A stretch of DNA of 64,000 bases from Gemmatimonadota bacterium (GTDB lineage Bacteria; Gemmatimonadota; Gemmatimonadetes; Gemmatimonadales; GWC2-71-9). Position numbers and translations under genes: made by a program. Below the pieces are notes generated by a model. That model was not told the DNA's origin. It saw only the letters and a list, made by a program, of their open reading frames with translations, and ran no database searches. How positions within the stretch are numbered: the first letter of the stretch is position 1; each line of letters opens with the position of its first letter. Positions 4,897 to 60,591 of the stretch are shown here, in pieces. The stretch is taken from positions 9,539-73,538 of the forward strand of contig JACQVB010000152.1 in NCBI GenBank assembly GCA_016209985.1, written 5' to 3'.

Positions 4897-5024
4897 AAAG
4901 CGGCGGGTAGGCGGTTAGACGGTTGGACGGTTAGTGAAAACGGGAGCTCGTTCGGGCTCCCGTTTTCGCGTTACCACCGGACTCACCAACCGTCCAGCCG
5001 TCCAACCGTCTACCCGCCGCTTTT
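4897..5024. repeat. Tandem-octamer hairpin element (GGACGGTT family), full palindrome
   Basis: Left arm aaagcggcgggtaggcggttagacggttggacggttag. Right arm caccaaccgtccagccgtccaaccgtctacccgccgcttt. The outer ends are perfectly complementary and the right arm carries extra units. Lies between convergent SusD-1 and thrC, and the right arm encodes the thrC C-terminus. Confidence 0.85.
4937..4966. terminator. Bidirectional intrinsic terminator at the core of the 4897-5024 element
   Basis: AAAACGGGAGC / tcgttcgg loop / GCTCCCGTTTT: an 11-bp stem including the A-run and T-run, so it can work on both strands between convergent genes. Confidence 0.65.
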
Positions 5025-6272
5025 CTCCACCAGCGCCGCCACCTCTTTGACTTTCGGTGCGATCACCGGCGCCTCCGGCAAGGCGCCGCTCACCGCCTCC
5101 ACCGTCTTGAGGCCGTTGCCGGTGATGCAGAGGACCACTTCGTCATCCGGTGTGAATCTGCCGGCGCGGGCCAGCGCCAGGGCGCCCGCTACCGTGACTC
5201 CTCCGGCGGTCTCAGTGAAGATGCCGGTGGTCTCCGCGAGCAGCCGGATCCCGGCAATCAGCTCGGCGTCACTCACCGCCTCGGCCCACCCCCCGGTCTC
5301 CTTCATCGCGCGCGCCGCGAACAGGCCGTCCGCCGGGTTTCCGATGGCGATGGAGCGCGCGATCGTGTTCGGCACGACCGGGGTGATTTCCTCGGCGCCG
5401 CTCTGCACCAGGTTCACGATGGGCGCGCAACCCTCGGCCTGGGTGCCATACAGTCGCGGGCATTTGCCGGATACCAGGCCGTCCGCGATGAACTCCTTGA
5501 AGCCCTTTTCCAGTTTGGTGAGGAGCGAGCCGCCGGCCATGGGCGCCACCACCGCCGTCGGGAGCCTCCACCCGAGCTGCTCGGCGATCTCGAACGCGAA
5601 GGTCTTGGAGCCCTCGCCGTAGTAACCGCGCAGATTGACGTTGACGATGCCCCAGCTGTAGCGGTCAGCGAGCTGGGCGCAGAGGCGGTTGACGTCGTCA
5701 TACGTTCCCCGGACCCGAACCAGTCGCGGCCCGTAGATCGCGGTCCCGATGATCTTGCCGATTTCCAGGTCGTGCGGCACGAAGATCCAGGCCACCAGGC
5801 CGGCCCGCGCCGCATGCGCCGCCACCGCGTTCGCCAGATTACCGGTCGAGGCGCACCCGACCGTGTCCAGCCCGAGCGCCTGCGCCGCGTTGACCGCGGT
5901 CGCCACGACGCGGTCCTTGAAGGACAGGCTGGGGTGACACACGCTGTCGTTCTTGATCCACACCCGACCCACCTCGAGCCGCCGCGCCAGCGCGGGTGCT
6001 TCGACCAGGGGAGTGAATCCGGTGTCCAGCGAAAGCTGCGGGTCTCCCTCAAACGGGAGCCACTCCCGGTAACGCCACAAGGAAGGCGCCCGCGACGCGA
6101 TCGTGCCGCGGTCGGGGCGGGGGCGCGCGGGATCGTAGTCGGGATCCAGCGGTCCCAGACACTGGCCGCAAATCGCCGCCGGTTGAGCCGGGCTGGTGTG
6201 ACCGCACAGCCGGCAGCGCAACGGCAAGACCCTGAGCGTCCGGGACTCACGAATCGGGGTGAGCGTCGTCAT
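5010..6272 (-). CDS. thrC: Threonine synthase (PLP-dependent, with N-terminal zinc ribbon)
   Basis: CRLCGH...CGQC zinc ribbon. PLP-lysine motif HPSLSFKDRVV. GNLANAVAAHAARAG and the glycine-rich loop are typical of ThrC. Start taken at the ATG at 6272 (MTTLTPIRE); the track ORF extends to 6329. Confidence 0.88.
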   Translation of the reverse strand: MTTLTPIRESRTLRVLPLRCRLCGHTSPAQPAAICGQCLGPLDPDYDPARPRPDRGTIASRAPSLWRYREWLPFEGDPQLSLDTGFTPLVEAPALARRLEVGRVWIKNDSVCHPSLSFKDRVVATAVNAAQALGLDTVGCASTGNLANAVAAHAARAGLVAWIFVPHDLEIGKIIGTAIYGPRLVRVRGTYDDVNRLCAQLADRYSWGIVNVNLRGYYGEGSKTFAFEIAEQLGWRLPTAVVAPMAGGSLLTKLEKGFKEFIADGLVSGKCPRLYGTQAEGCAPIVNLVQSGAEEITPVVPNTIARSIAIGNPADGLFAARAMKETGGWAEAVSDAELIAGIRLLAETTGIFTETAGGVTVAGALALARAGRFTPDDEVVLCITGNGLKTVEAVSGALPEAPVIAPKVKEVAALVEKSGG

Positions 6273-6493
6273 GATCCATGCTCCTGCTCGAAGCGTCCTT
6301 CTTGCTGGTGAGAGGACGCGGATGGCCAAAGAGCGGTGGGAAACAACAAACCCGCGACAAAACGCCGCGGGTCACTCGCTTTTTAGCCCTTGTTTAGCGT
6401 GGCGGCAATACGCGGCAAATCACCACGGTTCATCAATTGTCCGGATGCTACCTGCTCATTGGCGCCACTGTCAAGGACTGCCTTGCCGTACTT

Positions 6494-12586: not shown

Positions 12587-14218
12587 ATGACGACTCCCCC
12601 TTCGAGCGGAGATCTGGCCGAGGCGCAGATCCACGAACGTCTCGCCAAGGCCCTGGGCGCCCAATATGAAGTCCGCGGCATGCTGGGCCGCGGCGGTTTT
12701 GCCGAGGTGTTTGAGGTCTGGGACAAGTCCCTCGAGCGGCGACTCGCGGTCAAGGTGCTCCGTCCCGATGTGGCCTGGACCTCCGGCATGCTGGCGCGCT
12801 TCAAGCAGGAAGCGAAAGCCGTCGCGCAGCTGGCGCATCCGAACATCCTGCCGATCCATTTCGTCGGTGAAGGCGAGGGCATCATCTACTACGCGATGCC
12901 CTACATCGAGGGCAAGTCCCTCGGCGATGTGCTTCGCACCGAGGGTCGCCTCACACCGGATCGCGCGCTCGCCATCGCGCGCTCCATCTTCGACGCCCTG
13001 GAACACGCCCACCAGAAGGGGCTGATTCACCGGGACATCAAGCCCGACAACATCATGATCGACCAGACCTCGGGCCGGCCCATGCTCGTGGATTTCGGGA
13101 TCGCCAAGCGGATGGAAGGTGGGAAGGGACTCACCCAGACCGGATTCGTCGTCGGTACGCCGCACTACATGAGCCCGGAGCAGGCGTTGGGGCAGGGTGA
13201 TCTCGACCCTCGCTCCGACATCTATGCCATGGGGGCGGTGCTGTTCCAGATGGTGACCGGCACCCCGCCGTTCGACGGCGATACGTCGCAGGAAATTGTG
13301 GCCCAGCACATCACCAAGCAGCCGCCGCTCGCCAGCGAGGTGGACGGGCACATCCCGCAGTGGCTTTCGGACGTGATCGTCCGCTGCATGGCAAAACGTC
13401 CGGCGGATCGGTTCGATAGCGCCCTTCATGCGTCGCAGGCGCTGACGGCCGGTCGGAAGTCAGGGCCCCAGCAGCCGGTGAGCGCTGAGCGGGTGGCACG
13501 CGCCGTGGACGACGAGCGCACCGCGGTGATACCGACGGCGGAGCGGCGGGCCTCGCGGCCGGTGGAGAAACCCTATGTTCCGCCCGATGCCTCGGGTGCC
13601 GCTCCGGCAAGGCGTTCGAAACTGCCGGCCGTGTTGGCCCTGATCGCCCTGCTCGCGCTGGCCGGCGCCGGGGCGTTCTTCTATCTGAATCGTGCTTCCG
13701 TGCTGGTCGAAAACCGCCTGGTGGAGCCGATCCAGCTAACCGCCGGCAGCGAGCGTCACACCATCGATGCGGGAGGCCAATTGACGTTCCCGCTCAAGGC
13801 CGGTGTTGGAGAGGTGAGATGGGTGCTGATCCGTCCCACCACGCCTCAGGGAATCGCCATGGGGCGGGAGATTGGCGGGACCCTGCCGACTGCGGGCCAG
13901 CGGGGCACGAGCCGGCTTACGGTGGACGGGATGTCGGTAGAGCCTCCCGCCTTTGCACCGCTCATCACCAATGAGACGAAGGGCTCGCTCGCCATCACGG
14001 TGAATGCCGGGTTGAGCGGGGCGACGTCATGCAACTGCTGGATACCCGCGGGGGCGACGCGCGCGCGGATCGGCTATTACCCGCTCTACCAGAACAGCAC
14101 GGTGCGCGCGGAGGACCAGTCGGGACGCGCGGCCGGCTTCGGCGATCTGGGCCCGGATGTGGACCAGACTACGGGATCGGTCGGGCTTCGATTTCAGGAG
14201 AAGGACTTCCGGAAGTAA
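12587..14218 (+). CDS. Serine/threonine protein kinase with single TM and unknown extracytoplasmic domain
   Basis: Hanks kinase motifs GRGGFAEV, AVKVL, HRDIKPDNIM, DFGIAK, GTPHYMSPEQ. TM LPAVLALIALLALAGAGAFFYL. About 190-aa C-terminal domain not recognised. Start taken at the ATG at 12587. Confidence 0.88.
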   Translation: MTTPPSSGDLAEAQIHERLAKALGAQYEVRGMLGRGGFAEVFEVWDKSLERRLAVKVLRPDVAWTSGMLARFKQEAKAVAQLAHPNILPIHFVGEGEGIIYYAMPYIEGKSLGDVLRTEGRLTPDRALAIARSIFDALEHAHQKGLIHRDIKPDNIMIDQTSGRPMLVDFGIAKRMEGGKGLTQTGFVVGTPHYMSPEQALGQGDLDPRSDIYAMGAVLFQMVTGTPPFDGDTSQEIVAQHITKQPPLASEVDGHIPQWLSDVIVRCMAKRPADRFDSALHASQALTAGRKSGPQQPVSAERVARAVDDERTAVIPTAERRASRPVEKPYVPPDASGAAPARRSKLPAVLALIALLALAGAGAFFYLNRASVLVENRLVEPIQLTAGSERHTIDAGGQLTFPLKAGVGEVRWVLIRPTTPQGIAMGREIGGTLPTAGQRGTSRLTVDGMSVEPPAFAPLITNETKGSLAITVNAGLSGATSCNCWIPAGATRARIGYYPLYQNSTVRAEDQSGRAAGFGDLGPDVDQTTGSVGLRFQEKDFRK

Positions 14219-14308
14219 GAAGTGAGAAGTGAGAAGTAAGAAGGAAGTGAGAAGTAAGAAGTAAGAAGGAGCTCGTCCTTCTCACTTCTCACTTCTCACT
14301 TCACTTCG
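14212..14308. repeat. Tandem-heptamer hairpin element (GAGAAGT family), full palindrome with unequal arms
   Basis: Left arm of about 8 units (gaagtaa gaagtga gaagtga gaagtaa gaaggaa gtgagaa gtaagaa gtaagaa gga). Loop gctcg. Right arm of about 5 units (tccttct cacttct cacttct cacttca cttc). Contains the stop codons of both convergent genes. Confidence 0.9.
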
Positions 14309-16485: not shown

Positions 16486-16524
16486 TTGACAAGAACTACT
16501 ACACATGTAATACTACGGTCGTAG
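16486..16524 (+). promoter_or_regulatory. Candidate promoter overlapped by BlaI/MecI-type operator dyads
   Basis: TTGACA (16486-16491), 16-nt spacer, TAATAC (16508-16513). Dyad TACA-CA-TGTA at 16500-16509, matching the TACA/TGTA BlaI/MecI operator core. A second dyad CTACG-GT-CGTAG at 16513-24. About 40 nt upstream of the blaI-like ATG. Confidence 0.55.
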
Positions 16525-16559: not shown

Positions 16560-16961
16560 ATGTCCGAGCTCCACCAACTGACGGAACTGCAAATCGCGGT
16601 CATGCGCGTGCTCTGGGACAAAGGAGAAGCCACCGTGGCGGAAATCTGGGAGGCGTTGCGCCCCGAGCGGGGACTCGCGCAGACCACCGTGGCCACGCTG
16701 CTCTCTCGCCTCGAGAAACGGGGCGTGGTCGCGCACAAGAGCCGCGCCCGCCAGTACCTCTATCGCGCCACGGTCACCGAATCCGACGTGCGGCGAGTGA
16801 TGGTTCGTGACCTGACCGAGCGCCTGTTCGATGGTGATGTAGCGGCACTGATGAGTCATCTATTGACCGGGCGCGAGGTGACACCCGGCGATCTGGCACG
16901 CGTAAAGAAACTGGTCGAGGCGAAGGAATCGGGTAAGGAGGTGGGTCGTGCTGAGAAGTGA
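16560..16961 (+). CDS. BlaI/MecI/CopY-family transcriptional repressor
   Basis: LTELQIAVMRVLWDKGEATVAEIWEAL...TTVATLLSRLEKRGVV winged-helix of the penicillinase-repressor family. No C-terminal CxC metal motif. RBS GAGGTGG. Overlaps the following M56 gene. Confidence 0.88.
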   Translation: MSELHQLTELQIAVMRVLWDKGEATVAEIWEALRPERGLAQTTVATLLSRLEKRGVVAHKSRARQYLYRATVTESDVRRVMVRDLTERLFDGDVAALMSHLLTGREVTPGDLARVKKLVEAKESGKEVGRAEK

Positions 16962-19173
16962 GACGTTGCTCGCCTGGCTGTTGACCTACGCCTTGCACAG
17001 TACCCTACTGCTGGGCATCGCATGGGTGCTGACTCGCCGCCTGGTGCAGCCCCATGGCGTGAGAGACCTCATCTGGAAGACCGCGTTGATCGGCGGCTTG
17101 GTTTCGTCATCGGTGCAGGTGATCGCGGGGATCGAGCCGGTTGGTGGCAGTTACGCGCTCGAGGCGGCAGCTGCAACCTCGCAGTCGACGGAGTTGCGAC
17201 CCGCCGACCCGCCGACCCGCCCGTCCGCGCTGCGACCCGCCGACCCGCCGACCCGCCTGTCCGCCCTGCGACCCGCCGACCCGCCGACCCGCCGATCTGG
17301 ACTGGTTCTCGCCCTGGCGGGATGGATCATCACCGCCCTCATCCTGGCCGCGCACCTCCTCACCGCGCAGTTCCTGCTCGTGGTGCGCGTCGGCAGGCGC
17401 GCGTTGGTACGGGACGCGCAGTTGGTTGAGCTGGTGGACTTGCTCCGGGAAGAAGCGGGCCTTCGCCACCATATTCGCCTGACGCGTGCGGAAGGCTTGC
17501 CGAGCCCCGTGGCGTTGGGCCTCTCCGAGATCTGCATTCCCGACGCCGCGCTGACCGAGCTGGACCGCGAACAGCAGGAAAGCATGCTGGCCCACGAGCT
17601 GGCGCATCTGGCGCGGCGTGATCCCGTGTGGCTGTTCGTGAGCTGTCTCATCGAGCGGATCTTCTTCTTCCAGCCGCTGAATCGCCTGGCGCGGCGCCGG
17701 ATCCAGGAATCGGCCGAATATCTGTGTGATGACTGGGCCGCGCGGCGCTCCGGCTCAGGTCTTACGCTGGCCAAGTGTCTCGTCAAAGTGGCAGAATGGA
17801 TCGACACGATGCCGGAGCCGGTGCCGGTGTCGGGAATGGCCGAAATGCGCTCCCATTTCGTGTCGCGCATTCATCGCTTGATCGCGAATCATGCCCTGGT
17901 TACCCAGCCCACCCGGCGCTGGCTGGTTCCGGCCGCCATGGGCGCGGTAGCGGTGATCGTGGCCGCCGCACCTGGGGTGACGGCAACGAGGACGGTCGGA
18001 CGGTCGGACGGTCGGACGGGCAGTGCGACATCTCAATCGATTTCCCCGGCGGCCATCGCTACCCGTACGGTCGAGAGCTCGGAAACGCGCCCCGCGACCA
18101 CAACCAACGTGGAATTCACCGTCCGACCGTCTGACCGTCCAACCGTCCAGCCGTCTGACCGTCTGACCGTCGATGCTCCGCCGATGACGCTGGCTCAGAT
18201 CCGGCAGGGACGCGACACGGCCGCGATAACGGCCTTGATGGCGGCACTGAAGGACGAGGATGTGGAGGTCCGTCGGGCGGCCGCCCGGGCGCTGGGCAAC
18301 CGGCGCGATCCGCGGGCCGTACCGGCGCTGATGGCGGCGCTGGGTGACAGCGACGCCGAAGTGCGCGCGAAAGTGGTGGAAGCCCTCGCCGGCCTGCGCG
18401 ACGCGCGGGCGACCGACGGTCTGGTGCGCGCGCTCAAGGACGAGAACGCCGAGGTCCGCGCCCATGCGGCCGAGGCCTTGGGAGAGCTGCCCGATACCCG
18501 GCGCGGCTATTCCGCGGAGGCGCAGCGAGTCATCGCCGCGCTGGCGAGCCTGATGAGCGACGTTTCGGCTGAGGTGCGGAAGGAAGCGATTCAGGCGTTG
18601 CGGGAGGTGAAGGGCGCCCGCCTGACCGACCCGCTGATCACCGCGCTCAAGGATGCCGATGCCGATGTGCGGCAATCAGCCGCGGAGGCGCTCGGCGCGG
18701 CGGAAGCGCGCGGGGCGGTACAGCCGCTGATCGCCGCGCTCTCGGATCCCGCCGCCGACGTGCGTCACGCCGCCGCGCACGCGCTGGGCCATCTCCGGGA
18801 CCCGCAGGCAACCGAACCGCTCACCCGGTTGCTCAAGGACCCCAACGCCGAAGTCCGCCAGGCGGCGGCCGAATCGCTGGGCGAGCTGGAGTTGCCCCAG
18901 GCTCCAGCCGCACTGCTCGAGGCGATGCACGACCAGAGCGCGGAGGTCCGTCACCAGGCGGTTCAGGCGGTCGGCAACATCCGGGACCCCAGGGCGGTGC
19001 CGGCCCTCGCCGGTTTGCTCAACGATCCTGACCCGGATGTCCGTGAAATGGCGATCGAGGCATTGAGCAATATCCGCGACGCGGCGGCCATCGACGCGCT
19101 GGTGTCGGCCCTGCAGTCCAAAGACCCCAATGTGCGCAAACGCGCCGCCGAAGCCCTCGGCGAGCGGAACTGA
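16948..19173 (+). CDS. BlaR1-like M56 family membrane metalloprotease fused to C-terminal HEAT (PBS-lyase type) repeats
   Basis: GTG start overlaps the blaI stop. N-terminal TM helices, HELAHLARRD (HEXXH) and a further TM (WLVPAAMGAVAVIVAAAP). Then a low-complexity linker and about ten repeats of D.DVR..AA.ALG...D.RA...L. Confidence 0.85.
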   Translation: MLRSETLLAWLLTYALHSTLLLGIAWVLTRRLVQPHGVRDLIWKTALIGGLVSSSVQVIAGIEPVGGSYALEAAAATSQSTELRPADPPTRPSALRPADPPTRLSALRPADPPTRRSGLVLALAGWIITALILAAHLLTAQFLLVVRVGRRALVRDAQLVELVDLLREEAGLRHHIRLTRAEGLPSPVALGLSEICIPDAALTELDREQQESMLAHELAHLARRDPVWLFVSCLIERIFFFQPLNRLARRRIQESAEYLCDDWAARRSGSGLTLAKCLVKVAEWIDTMPEPVPVSGMAEMRSHFVSRIHRLIANHALVTQPTRRWLVPAAMGAVAVIVAAAPGVTATRTVGRSDGRTGSATSQSISPAAIATRTVESSETRPATTTNVEFTVRPSDRPTVQPSDRLTVDAPPMTLAQIRQGRDTAAITALMAALKDEDVEVRRAAARALGNRRDPRAVPALMAALGDSDAEVRAKVVEALAGLRDARATDGLVRALKDENAEVRAHAAEALGELPDTRRGYSAEAQRVIAALASLMSDVSAEVRKEAIQALREVKGARLTDPLITALKDADADVRQSAAEALGAAEARGAVQPLIAALSDPAADVRHAAAHALGHLRDPQATEPLTRLLKDPNAEVRQAAAESLGELELPQAPAALLEAMHDQSAEVRHQAVQAVGNIRDPRAVPALAGLLNDPDPDVREMAIEALSNIRDAAAIDALVSALQSKDPNVRKRAAEALGERN
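17194..17301. repeat. 3 x 36-nt in-frame tandem repeat inside the BlaR1-like CDS, each unit containing a CGACCCGC octamer triplet
   Basis: (t/c)tgcgacccgccgacccgccgacccgcc... repeated at 17194, 17230 and 17266. Encodes LRPADPPTRPSA / LRPADPPTRLSA / LRPADPPTRRSG. Confidence 0.9.
17989..18172. repeat. Octamer-array inverted repeat (GGACGGTC family) embedded in frame in the BlaR1-like CDS
   Basis: Left arm gaggacggtcggacggtcggacggtcggacgggcag (17989-18024). Right arm caccgtccgaccgtctgaccgtccaaccgtccagccgtctgaccgtctgaccgtcg (18117-18172). The right arm shares aaccgtccagccgtc with the intergenic element at 4897-5024. Confidence 0.85.
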
Positions 19174-19182
19174 GGAGCGACC

Positions 19183-20655
19183 ATGCTGGGGAACTGGAAA
19201 CTCGCCGGCTTCATGCTGCTCGCCGGAGCCTTCGGCTCAACTGCCGTGCTGGCCGCGCGCCGGCCCGCTCCTTCGCTGCCCCTTCGCTTCGCTCAGGGCG
19301 GCGGCTCAGAGCAGGCTTACCCGCCGAGGACTGATAAGAACGGTCCCGATTCTGCTCGAGTGGCGCGATTCCTGGAAGGGCTGGGCGCCACCGACCCCGT
19401 CGTGTGCGAGATGGCGGTGGATAACCTGGGGAACGGCTGGGGATGGCACAGTCGCCGCGAACCGGTCGGCGTGCTCCGGGACCGCCGCGACGCCGACCGA
19501 GAAGCGCGCAACGCATTCTCGCGCCCGGTCGATGATCCCAAGGCGCTGCCGCTCCTGGTCGACCGGCTGGCGGATCCCAACCCCTGCGTCCGCCGCGCCG
19601 CCGCCCGCATGCTGGGTGCACACCGCAGCGAGATGGCGCGACGGATGCTTCGCGCCAAGCTGCGGGACCCGCAGCCGCAGGTTCGCGAAGCCGCCGCACT
19701 CGGAGTGGGGGAGAGGGAAGACCCGCAAGCATACGACGACCTGCTCCGCGGCTTGCGCGATGCCGATCTCTACGTCGTGCGGATGTCGACGTGGGCGCTG
19801 GGCGAGCTGGAAGACCGCCGCGCCCTCACCGCGCTGGCTGCCCTCCTCGAGAACGCCGACGCGGGTGTGCGGGCCGCCGCGGTGTGGGCGCTGGGAAATC
19901 TGGAGGATGCCAGAGCCGTGCCCGGCCTGATCCAGCGGTTGCAGGATCGTAGCCCCGGCGTGCGCGAGCTGGCGGCGATGGCCCTGGGTGACATCGAGAG
20001 CAAATCTGCCACCCCGGCGTTGATCGACGCGCTGGACGATCAGGATCTGGGCGTGCGGCGCGCCGTGGTGCATGCTCTGGCGGATATCGAAGATCCCAAG
20101 TCGGCGACCGCCCTTGCCGGCCTGTTGCAGGCGAGTGATGCCGGGTTACGCATGGAGGCAGCGCATGCGTTGGGTGAGATCGAGGATCCGCGCTCCGTCT
20201 CCGCATTGAGCCGCGCGCTCAAGGACGAGGACCCCGCGGTTCGTGCGCAAGCCGCGTGGGCGCTCGGGGAAATCGAAGATGCGCGCTCCGCCCCGGCGCT
20301 GGCCCAGGCGGTGGCGGACTCCGATTTGGAAGTGAAAAAGAACGCGGTGCACGCGCTCGGTGAGCTGGACGATCTTCATCAGGCTCCGGCGAATCTCGTG
20401 AACGCGCTGGCGGACGCGAATCCAGAGATCCGGGCCATGGCGGCCGGGGCGCTGGGAGAGATCGGAGATCCCGCTACGGCACCGGCGCTCGGCCGCGCGC
20501 TCCAGGATGAAGTTCCCGAGGTTCGTCGCGAGGCGATCAGAGCGCTGGGCGAGATGGAAGACGCATCGGTCACCTCCCTTCTGGTAGCGGCACTCAAGGA
20601 TTCGGATCCCGAAGTGCGGCGCGAGGCCGCCCAGGCGCTGGGAGATCGAAAGTAG
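19183..20655 (+). CDS. Exported HEAT-repeat (PBS-lyase type) protein
   Basis: Signal peptide MLGNWKLAGFMLLAGAFGSTAVLAA. The remainder is a nearly uninterrupted 31-aa-period repeat (D.D..VR..A..ALGEIED.R....L). RBS GAGGAG. Starts 10 nt after the M56-HEAT gene. Confidence 0.85.
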   Translation: MLGNWKLAGFMLLAGAFGSTAVLAARRPAPSLPLRFAQGGGSEQAYPPRTDKNGPDSARVARFLEGLGATDPVVCEMAVDNLGNGWGWHSRREPVGVLRDRRDADREARNAFSRPVDDPKALPLLVDRLADPNPCVRRAAARMLGAHRSEMARRMLRAKLRDPQPQVREAAALGVGEREDPQAYDDLLRGLRDADLYVVRMSTWALGELEDRRALTALAALLENADAGVRAAAVWALGNLEDARAVPGLIQRLQDRSPGVRELAAMALGDIESKSATPALIDALDDQDLGVRRAVVHALADIEDPKSATALAGLLQASDAGLRMEAAHALGEIEDPRSVSALSRALKDEDPAVRAQAAWALGEIEDARSAPALAQAVADSDLEVKKNAVHALGELDDLHQAPANLVNALADANPEIRAMAAGALGEIGDPATAPALGRALQDEVPEVRREAIRALGEMEDASVTSLLVAALKDSDPEVRREAAQALGDRK

Positions 20656-20666
20656 AGGCTTGAAGT

Positions 20667-22844
20667 TTGACGGAGACACGCCGATGTTGCGGCGTGCGCA
20701 AACGTTTTGCCATCGTCGCCCTCTTCCTTGGGGCGACTTTCGCTCCCGGTGGACCACCGCGATCGTGGAACGGTCCCTCGCTTGCCGATACGACGAGTTT
20801 CTGCGCTCGCGCGCCGGCACCCGCTGATCCCGCGCACGACATCTACTGTCTCGAGCTGATCCCGCGCCCCGACATCCGCGAGGCCACCGGCGTGGTGGAG
20901 CTGCGGCGCCCTCCCTCTCCGTTTGACGTCGCCGTCTCAGTGGAAGGACATCAGCTCTACGACCTGGTAATGACCCTGCAGGGTCTTCCCGACCCCCATT
21001 CGCTGGGGGCGTATGCGACCTATGTGGCGTGGCTCGGACCGCCCAGCCTGTACCCGATGAAGAACCTCGGCGAGGTGCGGAATGGCCGGGTCGAGCTGGG
21101 ACGGGTGGCTCTGGAAAAGTTCATCGTCATGGTGTCAGCCGAATCGTCCGCGACGGTCTCTGAGCGCACCGGGCGACTCGTATTGCGGGGCAACTCACCC
21201 AGCACCCGCATGCAGCGGCACGACGTCCTGATGCTTCCCGGCGGGCCCGGCACGCATTCCATAGAGGCGATGCGCGGCTGGCCCATGCCCCCGATGGACA
21301 CGACGATTCCGATGTACATGCCGGGCATTGAAGCGCTGGTTCCGACCGCGACGCCACTGCTGCCGGTGGCGCCGGGCGGCGCGGTGGTTCCCGAAGCTCG
21401 GCCGCGCACGCTGCTCCCTCTGGCGGATGGTGATACCCTGCGCCTCGAGGCGGGCCTCGTCCGCCGTACCATCAACGGGCAATCGCTGCTGATGTACGGG
21501 TTCAACGGCCAGTATCCCGGCCCGCTGCTCTCAGTCCGGCAGAATGCGACCGTCGTCGTGGACTTCGTCAACCATCTCGATCAGCCGACCGCCGTTCATT
21601 GGCACGGCGTTCGTCTCGAGAACCGGTTCGACGGCGCCGTGGGCGTAACCCAGGAGGCAGTGCCCGCTGGCGGAAGGTTCACCTACCGGGTGCATTTCCG
21701 CGACGCCGGGATCTACTGGTATCACTCGCACTTCCGGGAGGACCTGCAGCAGGACCTCGGCCTCTACGGCAATATGTTGGTCCGCTCGTCTCGCCCTGAC
21801 TACTTCGCGCCGGTAAACCGGGAAGAGACCCTCATGCTCGACGACTTGCTTCTGGGTGACGCCGGCCCGATGCCGTTCGGTGAGGAAACCCCGACCCACG
21901 CACTGATGGGCCGGTTCGGAAACGTTTTCCTTATTAATGGGGAGCCCCGCTACACCCTTGCGGTGGCGCGCGGCGAGGTGGTGCGGTTCTACGTGACGAA
22001 TGTGGCGAACACTCGCAGCTTCAACCTGTCCTTCGGCGGTGCGCCGATCAAGCTGGTCGCGGCGGACGCGGGGAAGTTCGAGCGCGAGTCATGGGTGGAG
22101 AGCGTGTCGATCGCTCCGGCGCAGCGCTACGTGGTGGAGGTGAAATTTCCCGCTACCGGCGACGTGCCGCTGGTGAACCAGGTGCAGGCCATCAACCATT
22201 CCTTCGGCTATTTCTTCCCGCAGTCCGACACGCTGGGGGTCGTCCACGTCGGGAGCCGGGCATTGGCTCGCGACCATAGTGCGGAATTCGCGCGCCTTCG
22301 CACCAACGCCGACGTCGCCGGCGAGATGTCGCGCTACCGCCGGTATTTTACCCGTCCTCTCGATCGCGAACTGGTTCTCACGCTCAAAGTGCACGAGCTG
22401 CCATTCGCGCTGGAGCAGCTTCTGCAAATCGAAACCGGATATTTCAGCCCGGTCGAGTGGAGCGGCACCATGCCCATGATGGACTGGCTCTCCACCGGCA
22501 AGCAGGCGGAATGGACCCTCCGCGATCCGGCGAGTGGCAAGGAGAACATGGCTATCGACTGGCGGTTCAGGGTCGGCGACGTGGTGAAGATCCGGCTGGT
22601 CAACGACCGGAACACGTTGCACGCCATGGCGCACCCGATACACCTTCACGGTCAGCGCTTTCTGGTGCTTTCCCAAAACGGCGTGCCCAACGACGATTTG
22701 GTGTGGAAGGACACGATCCTCGTGCCGGTGGGGTCGACCGCCGAGCTGCTGGTGGAGATGTCGAATCCGGGACGGTGGATGCTGCACTGCCACATCGCGG
22801 AACATTTGCAGGCCGGGATGATGGGAGTGTTCGAAGTGAATTAG
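20667..22844 (+). CDS. Multicopper oxidase with about 230-aa N-terminal extension
   Basis: Copper-ligand motifs HWHG, YWYHSH, HPIHLHG and HCHIAEHLQAGMMG. Start uncertain: TTG at 20667, or GTG at 20694 giving MRKRFAIVALFLGATF. Confidence 0.85.
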   Translation: MTETRRCCGVRKRFAIVALFLGATFAPGGPPRSWNGPSLADTTSFCARAPAPADPAHDIYCLELIPRPDIREATGVVELRRPPSPFDVAVSVEGHQLYDLVMTLQGLPDPHSLGAYATYVAWLGPPSLYPMKNLGEVRNGRVELGRVALEKFIVMVSAESSATVSERTGRLVLRGNSPSTRMQRHDVLMLPGGPGTHSIEAMRGWPMPPMDTTIPMYMPGIEALVPTATPLLPVAPGGAVVPEARPRTLLPLADGDTLRLEAGLVRRTINGQSLLMYGFNGQYPGPLLSVRQNATVVVDFVNHLDQPTAVHWHGVRLENRFDGAVGVTQEAVPAGGRFTYRVHFRDAGIYWYHSHFREDLQQDLGLYGNMLVRSSRPDYFAPVNREETLMLDDLLLGDAGPMPFGEETPTHALMGRFGNVFLINGEPRYTLAVARGEVVRFYVTNVANTRSFNLSFGGAPIKLVAADAGKFERESWVESVSIAPAQRYVVEVKFPATGDVPLVNQVQAINHSFGYFFPQSDTLGVVHVGSRALARDHSAEFARLRTNADVAGEMSRYRRYFTRPLDRELVLTLKVHELPFALEQLLQIETGYFSPVEWSGTMPMMDWLSTGKQAEWTLRDPASGKENMAIDWRFRVGDVVKIRLVNDRNTLHAMAHPIHLHGQRFLVLSQNGVPNDDLVWKDTILVPVGSTAELLVEMSNPGRWMLHCHIAEHLQAGMMGVFEVN

Positions 22845-24349: not shown

Positions 24350-25812
24350 CGAGGGAAGAGGGAAGAGGGAAGAGGGAAGAGTGCATCCCCGTGGCCGCGC
24401 TTTTGTTGGCGGCGGCGACGGCAGCGAACCTGTACGCCCAGGGGCCTCAGCTTTCACCCGAGGTCCGACAGTACGTGAGTGTCGACACGCCGTTGGTTGC
24501 GATCACCCACGTGAAGCTGATCGATGGGACCGGCGCACCGGCTGCCCCCGATCAAACCGTGGTCATTGCCAACGGCAAGATCCAGGTGGTTGGTGCGGCG
24601 GCGACCGTGAAGCCGCCCGCCGGTGCCAGGGTCATGGATCTGACCGGCCACATGCTTATCCCGGGCCTTATCGGGATGCACGATCACACGTTCTATCTCA
24701 CGTACGGCGTCGAGCGGCCCATCCAGAGCAATTACAGTTACCCGCGGCTCTATCTGGGCAGCGGCGTGACGACCATCCGCACCACCGGCAGCATGAGTCC
24801 GTACGCCGAGATCAACATCAAGGCCGAGATCGATCGGGGTGATTCGCCCGGGCCCCACATGTATGTCACCGGCCCCTACATCATCGGTCCCAAGCCCGAT
24901 CCCCGCCTGGAACCGTTCGGCGCGCTGCGGGCTGCGACCCCCGAAGCAGCGCGGCGCGCAGTGGCGTATTGGGCCGAGGAGGGTGCTACCTGGATCAAGG
25001 TCTACGCGAGCATCAGTCGCGCTCAACTCGCGGCGGTAGTCGATGAAGCGCACCAGCACGGGATGAAGGTGACCGGGCATCTTTGCGCGGTGGGATATCG
25101 CGAGGCGGTGGCACTGGGCATCGACCACCTGGAGCACACCCTGTTCGCCAACTCCGAATACGATCCGCAGAAGCAGCCCGACGTCTGCCCACCGACGTAT
25201 CGCAGCGCGATGACGAATCTCGACATCGGGGGAGAACCGGTTCGGGCGACGTTCCGCGATCTCGTTTCCCGCGGTGTCGGAATGACGTCGACGCTGGCGG
25301 TCTACGAGTGCACCGTTCCCGGCCGGCCCACCCGGCACGCCCACGTACTCGAAGCGTTCTCGCCCGAAATGCAACGGGAGGATTCCGTCCGGTTCGCGAC
25401 GGTGTCTCAGGGCAAAGTAGCGTCCTACTGGCCTGCCGTCTTCAAGAAGACCATGGACTACGAGGTCGCGTTCGTGAAAGCGGGCGGGTTGTTGGTGGCC
25501 GGTGTGGATCCGGCGTGGTGCATCACGGCGGGCCGGGGCGACCAGCGGGAATTCGAGCTGCTGGTCGAGGCCGGGTTCACGCCGGTCCAGGCCGTGCAGA
25601 TCATGACCGCAAATGGGGCGAAGGTTCTGGGAATCCTTGACCGGGTGGGCACGGTGACGGCCGGCAAGAACGCCGATTTGGCGGTCATCCGCGGAGACCT
25701 TACCGCGCGCGCTGCCGATATCGAGAACGTGACGCTGGTGTTCAAGGACGGTGTGGGTTTTGATGCGGTGAGGCTGGTCGAGGCGGCGAAGGGGCAGGTG
25801 GGACTGAGATAG
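24346..25812 (+). CDS. Secreted amidohydrolase-family protein (copy 2, tandem paralog)
   Basis: Colinear with 22937-24349: LIPGLIGMHDHTF, KVTGHLCAVGYREAVALGIDHLEH, GVDPAW, TAGKNADLAVI. ATGA overlap with the upstream stop. Alternative GTG start about 45 nt downstream. Confidence 0.8.
   Translation: MTREEGRGKREECIPVAALLLAAATAANLYAQGPQLSPEVRQYVSVDTPLVAITHVKLIDGTGAPAAPDQTVVIANGKIQVVGAAATVKPPAGARVMDLTGHMLIPGLIGMHDHTFYLTYGVERPIQSNYSYPRLYLGSGVTTIRTTGSMSPYAEINIKAEIDRGDSPGPHMYVTGPYIIGPKPDPRLEPFGALRAATPEAARRAVAYWAEEGATWIKVYASISRAQLAAVVDEAHQHGMKVTGHLCAVGYREAVALGIDHLEHTLFANSEYDPQKQPDVCPPTYRSAMTNLDIGGEPVRATFRDLVSRGVGMTSTLAVYECTVPGRPTRHAHVLEAFSPEMQREDSVRFATVSQGKVASYWPAVFKKTMDYEVAFVKAGGLLVAGVDPAWCITAGRGDQREFELLVEAGFTPVQAVQIMTANGAKVLGILDRVGTVTAGKNADLAVIRGDLTARAADIENVTLVFKDGVGFDAVRLVEAAKGQVGLR
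24351..24382. repeat. Solo heptamer array (GAGGGAA x4.5)
   Basis: gagggaa gagggaa gagggaa gagggaa gag at the junction of the two amidohydrolase paralogs. Would encode residues 3-13 (REEGRGKREEC) of the second if the ATG at 24346 is used. Confidence 0.85.
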
Positions 25813-28898: not shown

Positions 28899-28995
28899 GA
28901 GAGTGAAGAGTGTAGCGTGAAGAGGGAAGAGTAAAACGGGCGGCGGTTTGGTCGTACTCTTCCCTCTCAACTCTGCACTCTTCACGTTCCCGTTC
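28899..28995. repeat. Tandem-heptamer hairpin element (GTGAAGA/GGGAAGA family), full palindrome
   Basis: Left gagagtgaagagtgtagcgtgaagagggaagagtaaaac. Right gtactcttccctctcaactctgcactcttcacg... Core GTGAAGAGGGAAGAGTA is shared with 41121-41246. Lies between the glbN stop and the permease start. Confidence 0.85.
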
Positions 28996-29674: not shown

Positions 29675-31129
29675 ATGAGTTGCACGCGCTTGTCCGCGTG
29701 GATCGGGACCGTCGCCTCTGGAATCCTGCTGGTCACGCAGGTAGCCAGCGCCCAGATCCAGGTCGGCGACCCGCGCATGAATGACGTGAGCCGGGGTTTG
29801 AAGCAGCCCCATTTCGGCGGCAGCAGCAACATCCATGTACTCTCGCACATTCCTCTCGGTGCTTGGTCCCACGTCATGGACATCGAGATGGAGCAGGAGC
29901 TGTCCCGGCCCTACGTCTACGTGGCCCGGGCCGACTGGAACAACGATCCGGAGCGGCCTCGCCAGACCGGCGGTCCGATTCAGTATCTGCCGGAAACCTC
30001 CAAGGGCGTGGACATCATTTCGATTAAGGATCCCACCCGCGCCAAGGTGCTCTACTCCTGGCGGATTCCCAATGGAGAGCTGCACCAGGGCACTGGCGGC
30101 ATGGACAACAAGTACTTCAAGCTCAAGGGCCGCTACTACGACATCCAGTCGCTCCAGTTCGGCAATGGTCCGGATGGCGATATCGGAGCCGTGGTCCTCG
30201 ACGTGACCAGCTTGCCCGATACGGCCGGTGTGCGCCAAGTGGGCTTCATCAAGATGCCGGATCAGAATGGTGGCTTCCACAACATCTTCATGTACAAGCA
30301 TTCGGATGGTCGCACCCTTCTGTTTACCAACGCCCGGCGGGTCTACGACATGGAGAAGTTCGTGGCCGGCGCACCCGATTACGGACTCATCGGTCAGGTG
30401 CCCGTGCCGGACGCGGCGGCGCAGGGCAATCCGAATGCCGGCTACCACGACGAGTACGTCGGCTACGACCCCGTCACCAAGCGCGACATCTTCTACGGCG
30501 CGGGCGCCGGCGGCTACCACGTCTATGACGTGAGCAAGCCCGAGACCCCGGTCCTCATCACCACGGTCCAGGGAGTCGCGGGCGTGCGCGGCGGCCACAC
30601 CTTCACGCCCGATCCCACCGGGCGCTATGCGGTAAGCGAAACGGAATACCAGTTTGCGCCATTGCGCATCTTCGATCTCAAGCCCGGCTTCGACGGCACC
30701 GTCAAGGTCATTTCGCGGCCCGTGGGCGCATGGCAGGGCACCTGGGACGGCAACGCCCACAATCACGAGGTGCGCTGGCCTTACGTGTTCGTGTCGGGCT
30801 ACATGGACGGGCTCCAGGTCTTCAACATGATGGATCCCACCAACCCGTACACCGTGGGCTACTACTACACCTGCGATTGCATGCTGCCCGGCGGCGCGAT
30901 CGGCACCGGCCAGAACGGTGGGATGGACGGCGCCTTCGGCGTGGACATCCGCAACGCCGACGGCGTGATCGTGATCAGCGACCGGCGCGGCGGGTTCTGG
31001 GCCTTCAAGATGGACGGGTTCGACGGCTGGAACGGCCACCAGTGGGGCATGCCCAACGTCTCCAGCGTGCAGGACTGGGACAATGGGCCCGACGGGGCAC
31101 CCAAGCCGAGCCGGGTGAGCATGCAGTAA
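29675..31129 (+). CDS. Secreted LVIVD-repeat-like beta-propeller protein (paralog 2)
   Basis: GGAGG RBS, then ATG at 29675 (the track ORF starts at the TTG at 29663). Signal peptide ...TQVASAQ. LVIVD-like strands such as GVDIISIKDP, AVVLDVTSLPD, GGYHVYDVSKPETP, YMDGLQVFNMMDPTNP and DGVIVISDRRGGFW. Confidence 0.75.
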   Translation: MSCTRLSAWIGTVASGILLVTQVASAQIQVGDPRMNDVSRGLKQPHFGGSSNIHVLSHIPLGAWSHVMDIEMEQELSRPYVYVARADWNNDPERPRQTGGPIQYLPETSKGVDIISIKDPTRAKVLYSWRIPNGELHQGTGGMDNKYFKLKGRYYDIQSLQFGNGPDGDIGAVVLDVTSLPDTAGVRQVGFIKMPDQNGGFHNIFMYKHSDGRTLLFTNARRVYDMEKFVAGAPDYGLIGQVPVPDAAAQGNPNAGYHDEYVGYDPVTKRDIFYGAGAGGYHVYDVSKPETPVLITTVQGVAGVRGGHTFTPDPTGRYAVSETEYQFAPLRIFDLKPGFDGTVKVISRPVGAWQGTWDGNAHNHEVRWPYVFVSGYMDGLQVFNMMDPTNPYTVGYYYTCDCMLPGGAIGTGQNGGMDGAFGVDIRNADGVIVISDRRGGFWAFKMDGFDGWNGHQWGMPNVSSVQDWDNGPDGAPKPSRVSMQ

Positions 31130-31210
31130 TTGCGATTGTGGATCGCGGATTGCGGATTGTTTGGAGCCGTGAAGTTGCGCCGCTCCAGACAATCCGCAAT
31201 TGTTTTTGGG
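31127..31210. repeat. Tandem-heptamer hairpin element (TGCGGAT family) acting as likely terminator
   Basis: Left attgcga ttgtgga tcgcgga ttgcgga ttgtttggagc. Right gctccagacaatccgcaattg followed by ttttt. Lies between the two tandem LVIVD paralogs. Confidence 0.8.
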
Positions 31211-39610: not shown

Positions 39611-39692
39611 GGCGGTGCGTGGTACGTGGTGCGTGGGGTCTTCCGGAGAGGCCCACTCACCACGCACCACGCACCACTCACCACTCACCGCT
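39611..39692. repeat. Tandem-heptamer hairpin element (GTGCGTG family), full palindrome
   Basis: Left ggcggtgcgtggtacgtggtgcgtgg. Right ccactcaccacgcaccacgcaccactcaccactcaccgc. Lies between the convergent deaminase and DEAD-box genes. Confidence 0.85.
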
Positions 39693-52517: not shown

Positions 52518-52650
52518 AAAGGGGAAGAGGGAAGCGGGAGGAGGGAAGCGTAAACCCTCACTCCTTAAGTGACGCGGCGCTTCGAGTACCTTCGGAGCGC
52601 CGCGTCAGTGTTTTACTCCTCCTTGTTCCCCTTCGCTCCGCTCAGGGGGG
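52518..52650. repeat. Purine-rich/pyrimidine-rich heptamer-array element (GGGAAGA-like) flanking a perfect hairpin
   Basis: Left ggggaagagggaagcgggaggagggaagcg. Right tactcctccttgttccccttcgctcc, which is imperfectly complementary. The right arm encodes the M20 C-terminus (...GAKGNKEE*). Confidence 0.65.
52570..52615 (+). terminator. Intrinsic terminator after SusD-3 (shared with the convergent M20 gene)
   Basis: TGACGCGGCGCT (52570-81) / 14-nt loop / AGCGCCGCGTCA (52596-607), followed by gtgtttt. Confidence 0.65.
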
Positions 52651-58994: not shown

Positions 58995-59095
58995 GAGGAG
59001 TAAGAAGTAAAAGAGGTAAGAAGTGAGAAGTGAGAAGTAAGAAGGGAGAAGTAAGAAGGGAGCCCGTCCTGGGCTCCCGTCTCACTTCTGTGCTT
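58995..59095. repeat. Tandem-heptamer element (GAGAAGT family) with long left arm, short right arm and a GC hairpin core
   Basis: gaggagtaagaagtaaaagaggtaagaagtgagaagtgagaagtaagaagggagaagtaagaa + GGGAGCCC gtcct GGGCTCCC (59058-59078) + gtctcacttctg. Immediately 3' of the minus-strand ferredoxin gene, so a likely terminator. Confidence 0.85.
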
Positions 59096-59443: not shown

Positions 59444-59524
59444 GAGTGCGGAGTGCGGAGCTGGGAGTGCGGAGTGAACGGCCGCGAACCTACCACTCCG
59501 CATTCCGCACTCCGCATTCCGCAC
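59444..59524. repeat. Tandem-heptamer hairpin element (GAGTGCG family) in a divergent promoter region
   Basis: Left gagtgcg gagtgcg gagctgg gagtgcg gagtg. Right cactcc gcattcc gcactcc gcattcc gcac. Lies between the ferredoxin start (59369, minus) and the BtuF-like start (59585, plus). Confidence 0.85.
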
Positions 59525-59584: not shown

Positions 59585-60532
59585 ATGCGAATCGCCTCGC
59601 TGCTTGCCAGCGCCACCGAGATCGTCTACGAGCTGGGCCTGCAGGATCACCTCGTCGCGATCTCGCACGAATGCGATTATCCGCCCGACGCTCTGACCCG
59701 GCCTCGACTCAGCCGCCCGCATTTTGACCCAACCGGCCTCTCGAGCGGTGCCATCGATGCCGCGGTCCGGGAGAGCATGGCTCGCCACGGGAGCGTCTAT
59801 ACCATCGATGAGGACCTGCTTCGCCGCCTTCAGCCGGATCTGATTCTCGCCCAGGCGGTGTGCGAGGTATGCGCGGTGCCGACCTCGCTGGCGGCCACCG
59901 TTTCGGAGGCACTGGGAACCAGACCCCGCATTCTCTCCCTCGACTGCCACACGGTGTCGGATATCCTGGATGCGGTGGTTTTCGTGGCGGAAGCAGCCGG
60001 TATTGTCGGTCGCGGCAGGGACGTGTCCCGCAGGCTTCAGGGCCGGCTCGATCGGGTCGCAGCGCGCGTTCAGGGCTCTGCGCCGCCGCGGGTTCTCGCC
60101 ATCGAATGGCTGGAGCCTCCGTTCGTGCCGGGACATTGGACCCCGGAAATGATCACCATTGCGGGAGGGATCGACGTGTTCGGCGCGCCGGCGCGTCCAT
60201 CACGGCAGCTCACCTGGGAACAGATCTCGGGTGCAGATCCCGACGTCCTGGTGATCATGCCCTGTGGATATGGAATCGATCGGGCCCGCGCGGACGCCGG
60301 CCGGAATGCCGAGCGCCTCCTGGCCGTCGCGCCACGCGCGGTCGAATCCGGACGGGCCTATGTGGTGGACGGCTCAGCATATTTCAATCGGTCGGGGCCG
60401 AGGATGATAGTCGGGGTGGAGATACTGGGCGCATTGCTGCATCCGGAGCGGGCTCCGAATATCGATCTGACCAACAAAGCTCAGGTCTGGAAGCCATCAG
60501 CCATCAGCCATCAGAGCTTGGCGAACCTTTGA
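59585..60532 (+). CDS. BtuF-like periplasmic-binding-protein-fold protein (Peripla_BP_2) without signal peptide
   Basis: MRIASLLASATEIVYELGLQDHLVAISHECDYP and DLILAQ..C.VC are typical of cobalamin/siderophore-binding type III SBPs. No signal peptide. No obvious RBS, and TTACAT-ca-TTACAT sits directly upstream. The track ORF start at 59384 would read through the hairpin element. Confidence 0.65.
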   Translation: MRIASLLASATEIVYELGLQDHLVAISHECDYPPDALTRPRLSRPHFDPTGLSSGAIDAAVRESMARHGSVYTIDEDLLRRLQPDLILAQAVCEVCAVPTSLAATVSEALGTRPRILSLDCHTVSDILDAVVFVAEAAGIVGRGRDVSRRLQGRLDRVAARVQGSAPPRVLAIEWLEPPFVPGHWTPEMITIAGGIDVFGAPARPSRQLTWEQISGADPDVLVIMPCGYGIDRARADAGRNAERLLAVAPRAVESGRAYVVDGSAYFNRSGPRMIVGVEILGALLHPERAPNIDLTNKAQVWKPSAISHQSLANL

Positions 60533-60572
60533 TCGCGGTGCCCAGTGACGGCTGACGGCTGACGGCTGATGG
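60493..60572. repeat. Tandem-heptamer hairpin element (CAGCCAT family), full palindrome
   Basis: Left gccatcagccatcagccatcag, which encodes ...SAISHQ... of the BtuF-like C-terminus. Right gtgacggctgacggctgacggctgatggc. Confidence 0.85.
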
Positions 60573-60591
60573 CAATCAACTGGAGGACAGT

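Follow-up and report, generated by a model that had tools for sequence, protein, structure and literature searches.

Rickettsia palindromic elements (RPE) have been described as dispersed hairpin repeats that lie in frame in many unrelated genes at positions compatible with the protein fold (Ogata et al. 2000, summarised in PMC10969869). Here we analysed a 64,000-nt stretch of a Gemmatimonadales genome (contig JACQVB010000152.1, positions 9,539 to 73,538 of the forward strand; hereafter the window), in which a gene encoding an M56 domain joined to HEAT repeats (M56-HEAT) carries two repeat blocks inside its open frame, a 3 x 36-nt tandem repeat and an inverted pair of octamer arrays. The inverted pair belongs to a family of octamer arrays that, like RPE, are dispersed, hairpin-forming and in frame inside unrelated functional genes. 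By contrast, RPE measure ~100-150 bp and share a conserved full-length consensus, whereas members of the octamer family share only their arms, which are variable 8-nt arrays around a locus-specific spacer; in addition, the octamer copies are mostly intergenic, belong to another phylum and have no sequence similarity to RPE.

REP, BIME and REPIN sequences, which are linked to RAYT (Y1) transposases, are high-copy, mostly extragenic palindromes that often form polar inverted doublets at gene ends (PMC3333891). The octamer family resembles them in copy number, in the fixed orientation of its pairs and in the lack of target-site duplications common to both, but a REP is a single imperfect palindrome of 20-40 nt, whereas the octamer family is made of tandem 8-mers, occurs also in coding sequence and encloses cargo of up to 450 nt. 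Among long-unit simple sequence repeats (SSR), GGGAATC heptamers are known from Xanthomonas and Nostoc, with some convergent inverted pairs in Xanthomonas axonopodis pv. citri (PMC4692102), and TAACTGA repeats from Beggiatoaceae (PMC4679880). Like these and the cyanobacterial STRR, the octamers form lineage-specific 7-8-nt arrays that occur genome-wide, vary in unit number, are G-rich and mostly non-coding, and have one strand, (GGNN)n, that could likewise form a two-tetrad quadruplex. A tandem unit of 7-8 nt, genome-wide over-representation and variable unit number place the arrays among long-unit SSR (5-11 nt), although direct arrays are usual there, whereas the octamer family consists mostly of polar pairs, wraps cargo and recurs in frame.

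Eukaryotic Foldback elements carry long terminal inverted repeats built of short tandem repeats. The octamer pairs share with miniature inverted-repeat transposable elements (MITE) and Foldback elements their inverted arms, variable centre, small size and dispersed copies with unrelated flanks, and with Foldback elements also the arms of tandem units in variable number, but no target-site duplication, conserved tips or parent transposase were identified for them. Moreover, some octamer pairs enclose native host sequence (the linker in the window gene, and the N-terminus of an Iso_dh protein at locus L060), unlike a cut-and-paste unit; the same internal sequence recurs at unrelated sites for three loci, L011, L054 and L068, but not for the copy in the window gene. 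In Haemophilus and Neisseria, intragenic SSR serve as contingency loci. The window gene resembles these in having a coding tandem repeat whose unit is not a multiple of three, such that a change in unit number shifts the frame, but its arrays are short, show no length polymorphism in contigs and belong to a genome-wide family rather than to a gene-specific tract. Full-text literature searches for the exact unit, its peptides and Gemmatimonas repeats found no description of the arrays, which are a variant of known repeat kinds and of moderate interest as a family.

Two in-frame repeat blocks in an M56-HEAT gene

The host gene (16948-19173, + strand) begins with GTG and encodes 741 aa in a single open frame, taken from the list of open reading frames (ORFs) and its translation, that stays open across both repeat blocks, in agreement with the preliminary description of this DNA. 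Its product contains an M56 domain (PF05569 in Pfam, 75.3 bits, cut-off 31), the zinc motif HEXXH in the form HELAH at residues 216-220, and ~10 HEAT repeats (HEAT_2, E = 3.6e-82 in Pfam), and its membrane/protease core aligns weakly with the BlaR1 structures 8EXP and 8EXS over a region spanning the HELAH motif. The M56 domain, the HEXXH motif, four transmembrane (TM) helices and an adjacent BlaI-type repressor are all features of an M56/BlaR1-type gene; Pfam detected no penicillin-binding (transpeptidase-like) sensor domain at the C-terminus, where the HEAT repeats stand instead, and the protein is a member of the M56 family, not a BlaR1 orthologue.

Both blocks occupy variable parts of this protein. 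In an alignment of 21 homologues, the only two unalignable, length-variable segments are the two repeat sites: loop 1, which connects helices two and three, and linker 2, which runs from the last helix to the start of the HEAT repeats. An AlphaFold2 model of the protein (mean predicted local distance difference test score, pLDDT, of 76.7; HEAT domain mostly >90) places coil with pLDDT <50 at residues 65-113 and 342-417, with confident helices H36-59, H114-147, H326-345 and H415-433 around these stretches. Judging from the topology of BlaR1, both loops probably face the periplasm.

In linker 2, the left arm (F; 17990-18019, + strand) reads (GGACGGTC)x3.75, matches the octamer consensus at 30/30 positions and encodes VGRSDGRTG, while the right arm (R; 18118-18171, + strand) reads (GACCGTCY)x6.75, matches the consensus at 48/54 positions with six transitions and encodes TVRPSDRPTVQPSDRLTV. 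Tandem Repeats Finder reported the two arms as (GGACGGTC)x3.8 with 100% matches and (ACCGTCYR)x6.8 with 84% matches, and dinucleotide-preserving shuffles of the window produced no match comparable to either octamer pattern. The arms are inverted across 30 nt with 93% complementarity and lie 98-99 nt apart, and the 98-nt spacer between them (18020-18117, + strand) encodes the linker SATSQSISPAAIATRTVESSETRPATTTNVEF and is free of stop codons in all three forward frames; the linker peptides encoded read GRSDGRTGSATSQ... and TVRPSDRPTVQPSDR.... In the predicted RNA fold of 17975-18185, the two arms pair into a nearly continuous stem (-102.8 kcal/mol, z = -4.08; no shuffle as stable), and a scan for intrinsic terminators within the gene predicted none.

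In loop 1, between TM helices H36-59 and H114-147, lies the 3 x 36-nt in-frame tandem repeat (17195-17302, + strand). Tandem Repeats Finder delimits a period-36 array at 17195-17293 (2.8 copies, 96% matches), and direct reading gives units at 17195-17230, 17231-17266 and 17267-17302, the last 9 nt of the third unit diverging. Each unit is composed of (CGACCCGC)x3 plus 12 nt, so that expansion keeps the frame, and the three encode L-RPADPPTRPSA, L-RPADPPTRLSA and L-RPADPPTRRSG. Exact 24-mers of CGACCCGC (n=3) are confined to the 36-nt repeat within the window (shuffle expectation 0). The repeat has no inverted partner, and CGACCCGC is an octamer related to, yet distinct from, that of the arms. 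Unrelated in-frame tandem duplications of 36 or 24 nt also occur in the same loops of other M56-HEAT orthologues (L125 1699-1771; L139/L143/L144, 36-nt x2; L145 2585-2654; L138 2978-3129; L158 1626-1687), which marks the loops out as general hot spots where proline-rich repeats expand.

Both blocks had been pointed out in the preliminary description, and both are present in the coding sequence, with coordinates shifted by 1-2 nt and with the peptides given there. Three independent groundwater metagenome runs yielded Logan contigs that cover 16900-17295 and 17266-18400 and match the window there without any difference or gap, and this base-for-base agreement means that the repeat structure is not an assembly artefact. 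In the source metagenome, read depth is 307 over the left arm and 140-307 over the arms overall, compared with ~11 (10.8) in the flanks, an excess of 10-30x, and many other contigs join the same arms via short, different spacers. The spacer in linker 2 has a read depth of 10.8, that of the unique flanks, and is single-copy. Over the CGACCCGC array the depth is 216 versus ~11 in the flanks, indicating that the unit of the 36-nt repeat is also multi-copy in the community.

A polar octamer-array family of Gemmatimonadales

An exact scan for the 22-mer GGACGGTCGGACGGTCGGACGG, with one genome per species, returned at least 118 stretches; among the matches listed, ~80% come from metagenome-assembled genomes (MAGs) of Gemmatimonadales or Gemmatimonadaceae, with at least 16 from a single MAG. 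The same 22-mer gave 4 matches in 2.9 million viral contigs, and the repeat is thus not phage-associated. Most copies of the family are extragenic, while the window copy in linker 2 lies inside coding sequence. An extragenic member in the window itself is the compound terminator at 4897-5024, which lies between convergent ORFs, has A and T runs outside, and consists of outer arms (GGTTRGAC)n at 4904-4934 and (RRCCGTCY)n at 4986-5010 that wrap an inner terminator hairpin at ~4937-4967, with a predicted RNA fold of -101.6 kcal/mol (z = -12.8). The 15-mer AACCGTCCAGCCGTC is common to this element (4988-5002) and the right arm in the M56-HEAT gene (18141-18155), as had been noticed earlier. The proposal that an element of intergenic type sits within the coding linker holds for the arms, given that their octamer family forms the 4897-5024 terminator, occurs at no fewer than 118 loci and reaches 10-30x the depth of the flanks, whereas the 36-nt repeat is only loosely of the same kind.

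The family is strictly polar. Across Gemmatimonadales loci, 41 pairs run F-then-R, (GGACGGTC)n -> (GACCGTCC)n, and 0 run R-then-F; a relaxed partner search found partners downstream of 36 F arrays and upstream of 38 R arrays, against 0 in the opposite order (74 to 0). No inverted pairs were found at non-Gemmatimonadota loci. When all adjacent 7-8-nt arrays of the loci and the window are taken (n=92), 61 form inverted pairs, with the G-rich array 5' in 57/61; this total includes the pairs built from other unit sequences, among which the G-rich array is 5' in 15/19. The family unit is a quasi-palindrome, GAC-S-GTC-S, which gives F and R arrays 75% identity when both are read in the same direction. 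The sequence of the F strand, (GGNN)n, for example at 17990-18019, has the form of a two-tetrad G-quadruplex motif.

The sequence enclosed by the arms is heterogeneous and 11-451 nt long, and includes simple terminator-like hairpins. Another palindrome, GTCAYCCYGAGCGNAGCGARGG with its complement, is REP-like, occurs in great abundance at Gemmatimonadales loci and is frequently enclosed by octamer arms; copies occur at 19281-19302 (- strand) of the window and at L012, L034, L048, L052, L069, L088 and others. The neighbouring HEAT gene contains an in-frame half-copy of this palindrome (PLRFAQGG), and the DnaE-type polymerase of L048 contains in-frame full copies (VTLSGAKG...LRSAQGD). In an Rfam search of the window and 14 array-rich loci, no family covered the arrays or the GTCAYCCYGAGCGNAGCGARGG palindrome, the only matches being to the SAM-II riboswitch. 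In three MAGs, a ~440-nt cargo between long arms encodes a 23S_rRNA_IVP/bAvd-like four-helix-bundle protein (PF05635, E = 7e-33; L013 5751-6201, L025 2321-2755 and L031 732-1175), an arrangement reminiscent of rRNA intervening sequences.

At L060 (3397-3821), the arms bracket native sequence, with the left arm in the 5' leader and the right arm in frame ~120 codons into Iso_dh, 358 nt apart, and the sequence between them includes the first 115 residues of Iso_dh. At L011, L054 and L068, all from one MAG, the inner units and spacer are common, the flanks are unrelated and the outer units number 5, 8 or 19, a comparison that demonstrates both dispersal and slippage. No direct repeats (target-site duplications) or conserved termini were seen at the 41 pairs in 15-nt flanks inspected visually, the array boundaries being fuzzy.

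Translation of array-spanning ORFs followed by Pfam checks identified, besides the window gene and its L001 counterpart described below, seven genes with in-frame arrays, encoding a DnaE-type polymerase (two MAGs), RarA/MgsA, an amidohydrolase, TGT, Iso_dh and Peptidase_MA_2. The DnaE-type polymerases of the two MAGs carry R arrays at the same site and share 72% identity (56% at four-fold sites). The octamer unit contains a stop codon in 0/6 frames, and since a period of 8 is not divisible by 3, the peptide is identical in every frame of a given strand: all three frames of (GGACGGTC)n encode the cyclic peptide GRSDGRTV and all three of its complement encode DRPTVRPS. The octamer of the 36-nt repeat, (CGACCCGC)n, encodes RPADPPTR. 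A common variant of the unit, GACCGTCT, makes TGA once per 24 nt. The three T-variant units of the right arm fall only in two codon phases (Ser-Asp or Arg-Leu-Thr) and none in the TGA/TAG phase, a pattern that, in this small sample, suggests purifying selection on the translated frame. A search for (GRSDGRTV)n and (DRPTVRPS)n in a 5.8-billion-protein set returned 52 strong matches, all hypothetical ORFs of 60-118 aa; this search scores short inserts in long proteins too low and is uninformative on real host proteins.

Orthologues, age of the arms and competing explanations

Homologues of the host protein were surveyed among >2000 database proteins at E <= 1e-10, with domain and peptide checks on the best 120. 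All 120 carry PF05569 and HEAT in one chain of 558-990 aa, the named homologues among them are Gemmatimonadota or Thermoanaerobaculia, and the repeat-encoded peptides are absent from 118, only the window protein and P0002 carrying them. Since the fusion is found in 120/120 homologues and the repeats in two, the architecture is an old one to which the repeats were added late. This rules out the suggestion of the preliminary description that the element had fused separate M56 and HEAT genes.

The repeats do vary in presence and copy number among orthologues, as had been expected if they were insertions. L001, from another project, encodes P0002, which shares 72% identity with the window protein in conserved columns, and carries the same octamer arrays as two in-frame pairs, of which one lies in loop 1 (670-699 / 776-807) and the other in linker 2 (1563-1584 / 1698-1728), the linker also occupied in the window. 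L002 encodes P0003 from a gene without octamer arrays, whose linker carries an AAC/ACC-type repeat. P0002 and P0003 are 74.7% identical to each other and 72.0% and 70.9% identical, respectively, to the window protein, and no octamer arrays were found in more distant metagenome orthologues (<=61% identity; best 53-61%). Four-fold sites of the window gene and L001 are 41% identical versus ~35% expected from composition and are thus saturated, yet the arms of the two genes match the octamer consensus at 30/30, 48/54, 30/30, 30/32, 21/22 and 31/31 positions (89-100%), showing that the arms were not passively inherited and are either recent or continuously homogenised. The spacers of the window and L001 have no significant similarity (z = 1.0; 85/500 shuffles as good).

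Taking these observations together, we consider it likely, with a probability of roughly 0.68, that the blocks are tolerated in-frame passengers of a lineage-wide octamer-array family, kept uniform via slippage or conversion and filtered for frame and stops only. Arrays in Gemmatimonadales normally take the form of polar inverted pairs, with the G-rich (GGACGGTC)n 5' and the C-rich (GACCGTCC)n 3', which act as long outer stems round terminators, other palindromes and small cargo genes, while slippage alters array length. In the window gene, one pair and one related solo array lie in two loops of an ancient M56-HEAT transducer, both loops being disordered, variable in length and probably extracytoplasmic. 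The repeats may survive there because the unit is stop-free in six frames, because each frame of a strand gives the same hydrophilic or proline-rich peptide, and because a net length that is a multiple of 3 would be harmless in a floppy linker, leaving selection to purge only frame-breaking lengths and stop-creating unit variants. We infer that the blocks are close to neutral, and slippage or gene conversion would be the process that maintains them.

Several observations weigh against tolerated passengers. The same linker is paired in the window and L001 despite saturated synonymous sites, and the DnaE-type polymerase site carries R arrays in two MAGs; such repeated occupation might reflect selection in favour of the arrays or their targeting to particular sites, as opposed to neutral tolerance, and near-consensus arms are also expected from selection on a hairpin or protein-binding site. 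The 41 pairs lack target-site duplications and conserved termini. The spacer in the window is unique coding sequence and that of L060 is native coding sequence, so that simple insertion of one mobile unit does not explain these two copies. Re-occupation of sites, absolute polarity and the bracketing of native sequence fit the passenger reading least, and point to a way of seeding other than simple cut-and-paste insertion. It is conceivable, though on balance unlikely, that Gemmatimonadales have an undescribed sequence-specific process that builds polar tandem-octamer stems round existing DNA segments, with the G-rich array 5' on both strands; candidates would be the templated addition of repeats to 3' ends where DNA is broken, or a recombinase dedicated to hairpins. 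If so, the resulting double-stranded RNA or DNA stems, including those in the M56-HEAT coding sequence, might serve as RNase III processing sites or length-variable switches.

Selection on the hairpin itself would make the ~30-bp arm stem between the M56 and HEAT modules a regulatory mRNA element, a substrate for RNase III or a roadblock to ribosomes in poorly translated mRNA that would tune stability, translation pace or membrane insertion. The predicted fold, unmatched by shuffles, agrees with this, as do arms that stay near consensus while neutral sites are saturated, the occupied linker of L001, the bracketing of the Iso_dh translation start region at L060, and the enclosure of 23S_rRNA_IVP genes by the same arms, as in rRNA intervening sequences, whose stems are cut by RNase III. 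However, 118 of the best 120 homologues function without the element and the sister orthologue in L002 lacks the pair, A-C mismatches account for two of the six substitutions in the right arm, the wobble-compatible share of 4/6 being no better than chance for transitions, and translating ribosomes would hold the stem open, all of which makes a regulatory stem rather doubtful. The encoded peptides would offer another target for selection, with the proline-rich repeats PADPPTR and DRPTVRPS serving as an extended periplasmic spacer or interaction motif. They are hydrophilic and proline-rich, lie in probably extracytoplasmic linkers and, in the case of the 36-nt repeat, grow in frame-preserving steps, and other orthologues have independently gained proline-rich 36-nt/24-nt duplications in loop 1. 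Such a function is nevertheless improbable, given that conservation between the window and L001 is at the level of the nucleotide unit, synonymous positions included, and matches the intergenic copies, that the left-arm peptide GRSDGRT is unrelated, and that all but two of the best 120 homologues lack the peptides.

Simulated changes in array length bear on whether the pair acts as a contingency (phase-variation) switch, in which gain or loss of one or two units would shift the frame and yield an M56-only protein. An 8- or 16-nt change in either arm always leads to a stop at the TGA of the right-arm T-variant units, giving 392-408 aa without HEAT, whereas a 24-nt change keeps the frame; a gain of 8 nt in the F arm offset by a loss of 8 nt in the R arm yields a full-length product whose linker is new, opposite changes re-coding only the spacer. 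SSR-driven phase variation is described as well established in other bacteria (PMC12721329), and an intragenic unit of 8 nt, not a multiple of 3, together with unit numbers from 5 to 19 among dispersed copies, would suit it. Against this, 3.75 and 6.75 units are short for fast switching, no array length variants were found among the contigs of the three samples, although contigs hide rare variants, and the family is mostly intergenic and also present in housekeeping DnaE-type polymerase, TGT and RarA genes, where on/off switching makes little sense; we regard a switch as very improbable. Least credible of all is that the element created the fusion or that the blocks are artefacts, and both can be dismissed almost entirely. 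It is true that the arms mark the exact boundary between the domains, that two separate ORFs could be joined across stop-free repeats, and that short-read assemblies break at repeats, several loci ending in arrays, but the fused architecture is shared by all of the best 120 and by the >2000 homologues, almost all without repeats, the three independent assemblies are identical, and L001 has the same design.

Gene neighbourhood, other repeats and significance

Directly upstream of the M56-HEAT gene, and overlapping its start, lies a BlaI/CopY-type repressor gene (16560-16961, + strand; PF03965 Penicillinase_R, E = 6.9e-30), with a sigma-70-like promoter at 16486-16514 ahead of both. The 3' neighbours encode a secreted HEAT protein and a multicopper oxidase, and a HEAT-cyclophilin gene lies upstream of the cluster on the opposite strand. 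The repressor, M56-HEAT, secreted HEAT protein and multicopper oxidase genes form an operon-like cluster (16560-22844) that is conserved in L002, and the two closest orthologous loci, L001 and L002, keep the gene order of the window. The composition of the cluster suggests that the module signals copper or envelope stress rather than the presence of beta-lactams.

Elsewhere in the window, heptamer tandem arrays stand as inverted pairs at at least seven gene ends (14212-14302, 28900-28990, 31129-31205, 39614-39689, 58999-59090, 59444-59523 and 60492-60573), each site having its own unit and the G-/purine-rich arm being nearly always 5'. In L002, the site orthologous to 14212-14302 is occupied by a different heptamer pair, at 943-1052. 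Purine-rich heptamer arrays, (GAGGGAA)n at 24351-24381 and (GGGAAGM)n at 52522-52548, lie at or ahead of start codons and resemble tandem Shine-Dalgarno-like motifs. A SAM-II riboswitch (SAM_alpha, RF00521) matches 6362-6436 (- strand) with a score of 36.8 against a gathering threshold of 36, upstream of an ORF at 5010-6329 (- strand), and another match, of 41.2 bits, occurs in a Gemmatimonadales MAG (L090 7220-7289), SAM_alpha being named for Alphaproteobacteria.

For the M56-HEAT gene, the repeats are of low functional significance, with no evidence of a new function and no bearing on how its fusion came about. The wider family matters for annotation, where stop-free arrays yield spurious short ORFs, low-complexity inserts in real proteins and broken short-read assemblies. 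Its 74 to 0 polarity and diverse cargo constrain models of the origin of such repeats. After the RPE of Rickettsia, the octamer arrays provide a second clear case of a dispersed hairpin repeat that lies repeatedly in frame in functional genes, and a period-8 unit that is frame-independent and stop-free offers a simple explanation for their tolerance.

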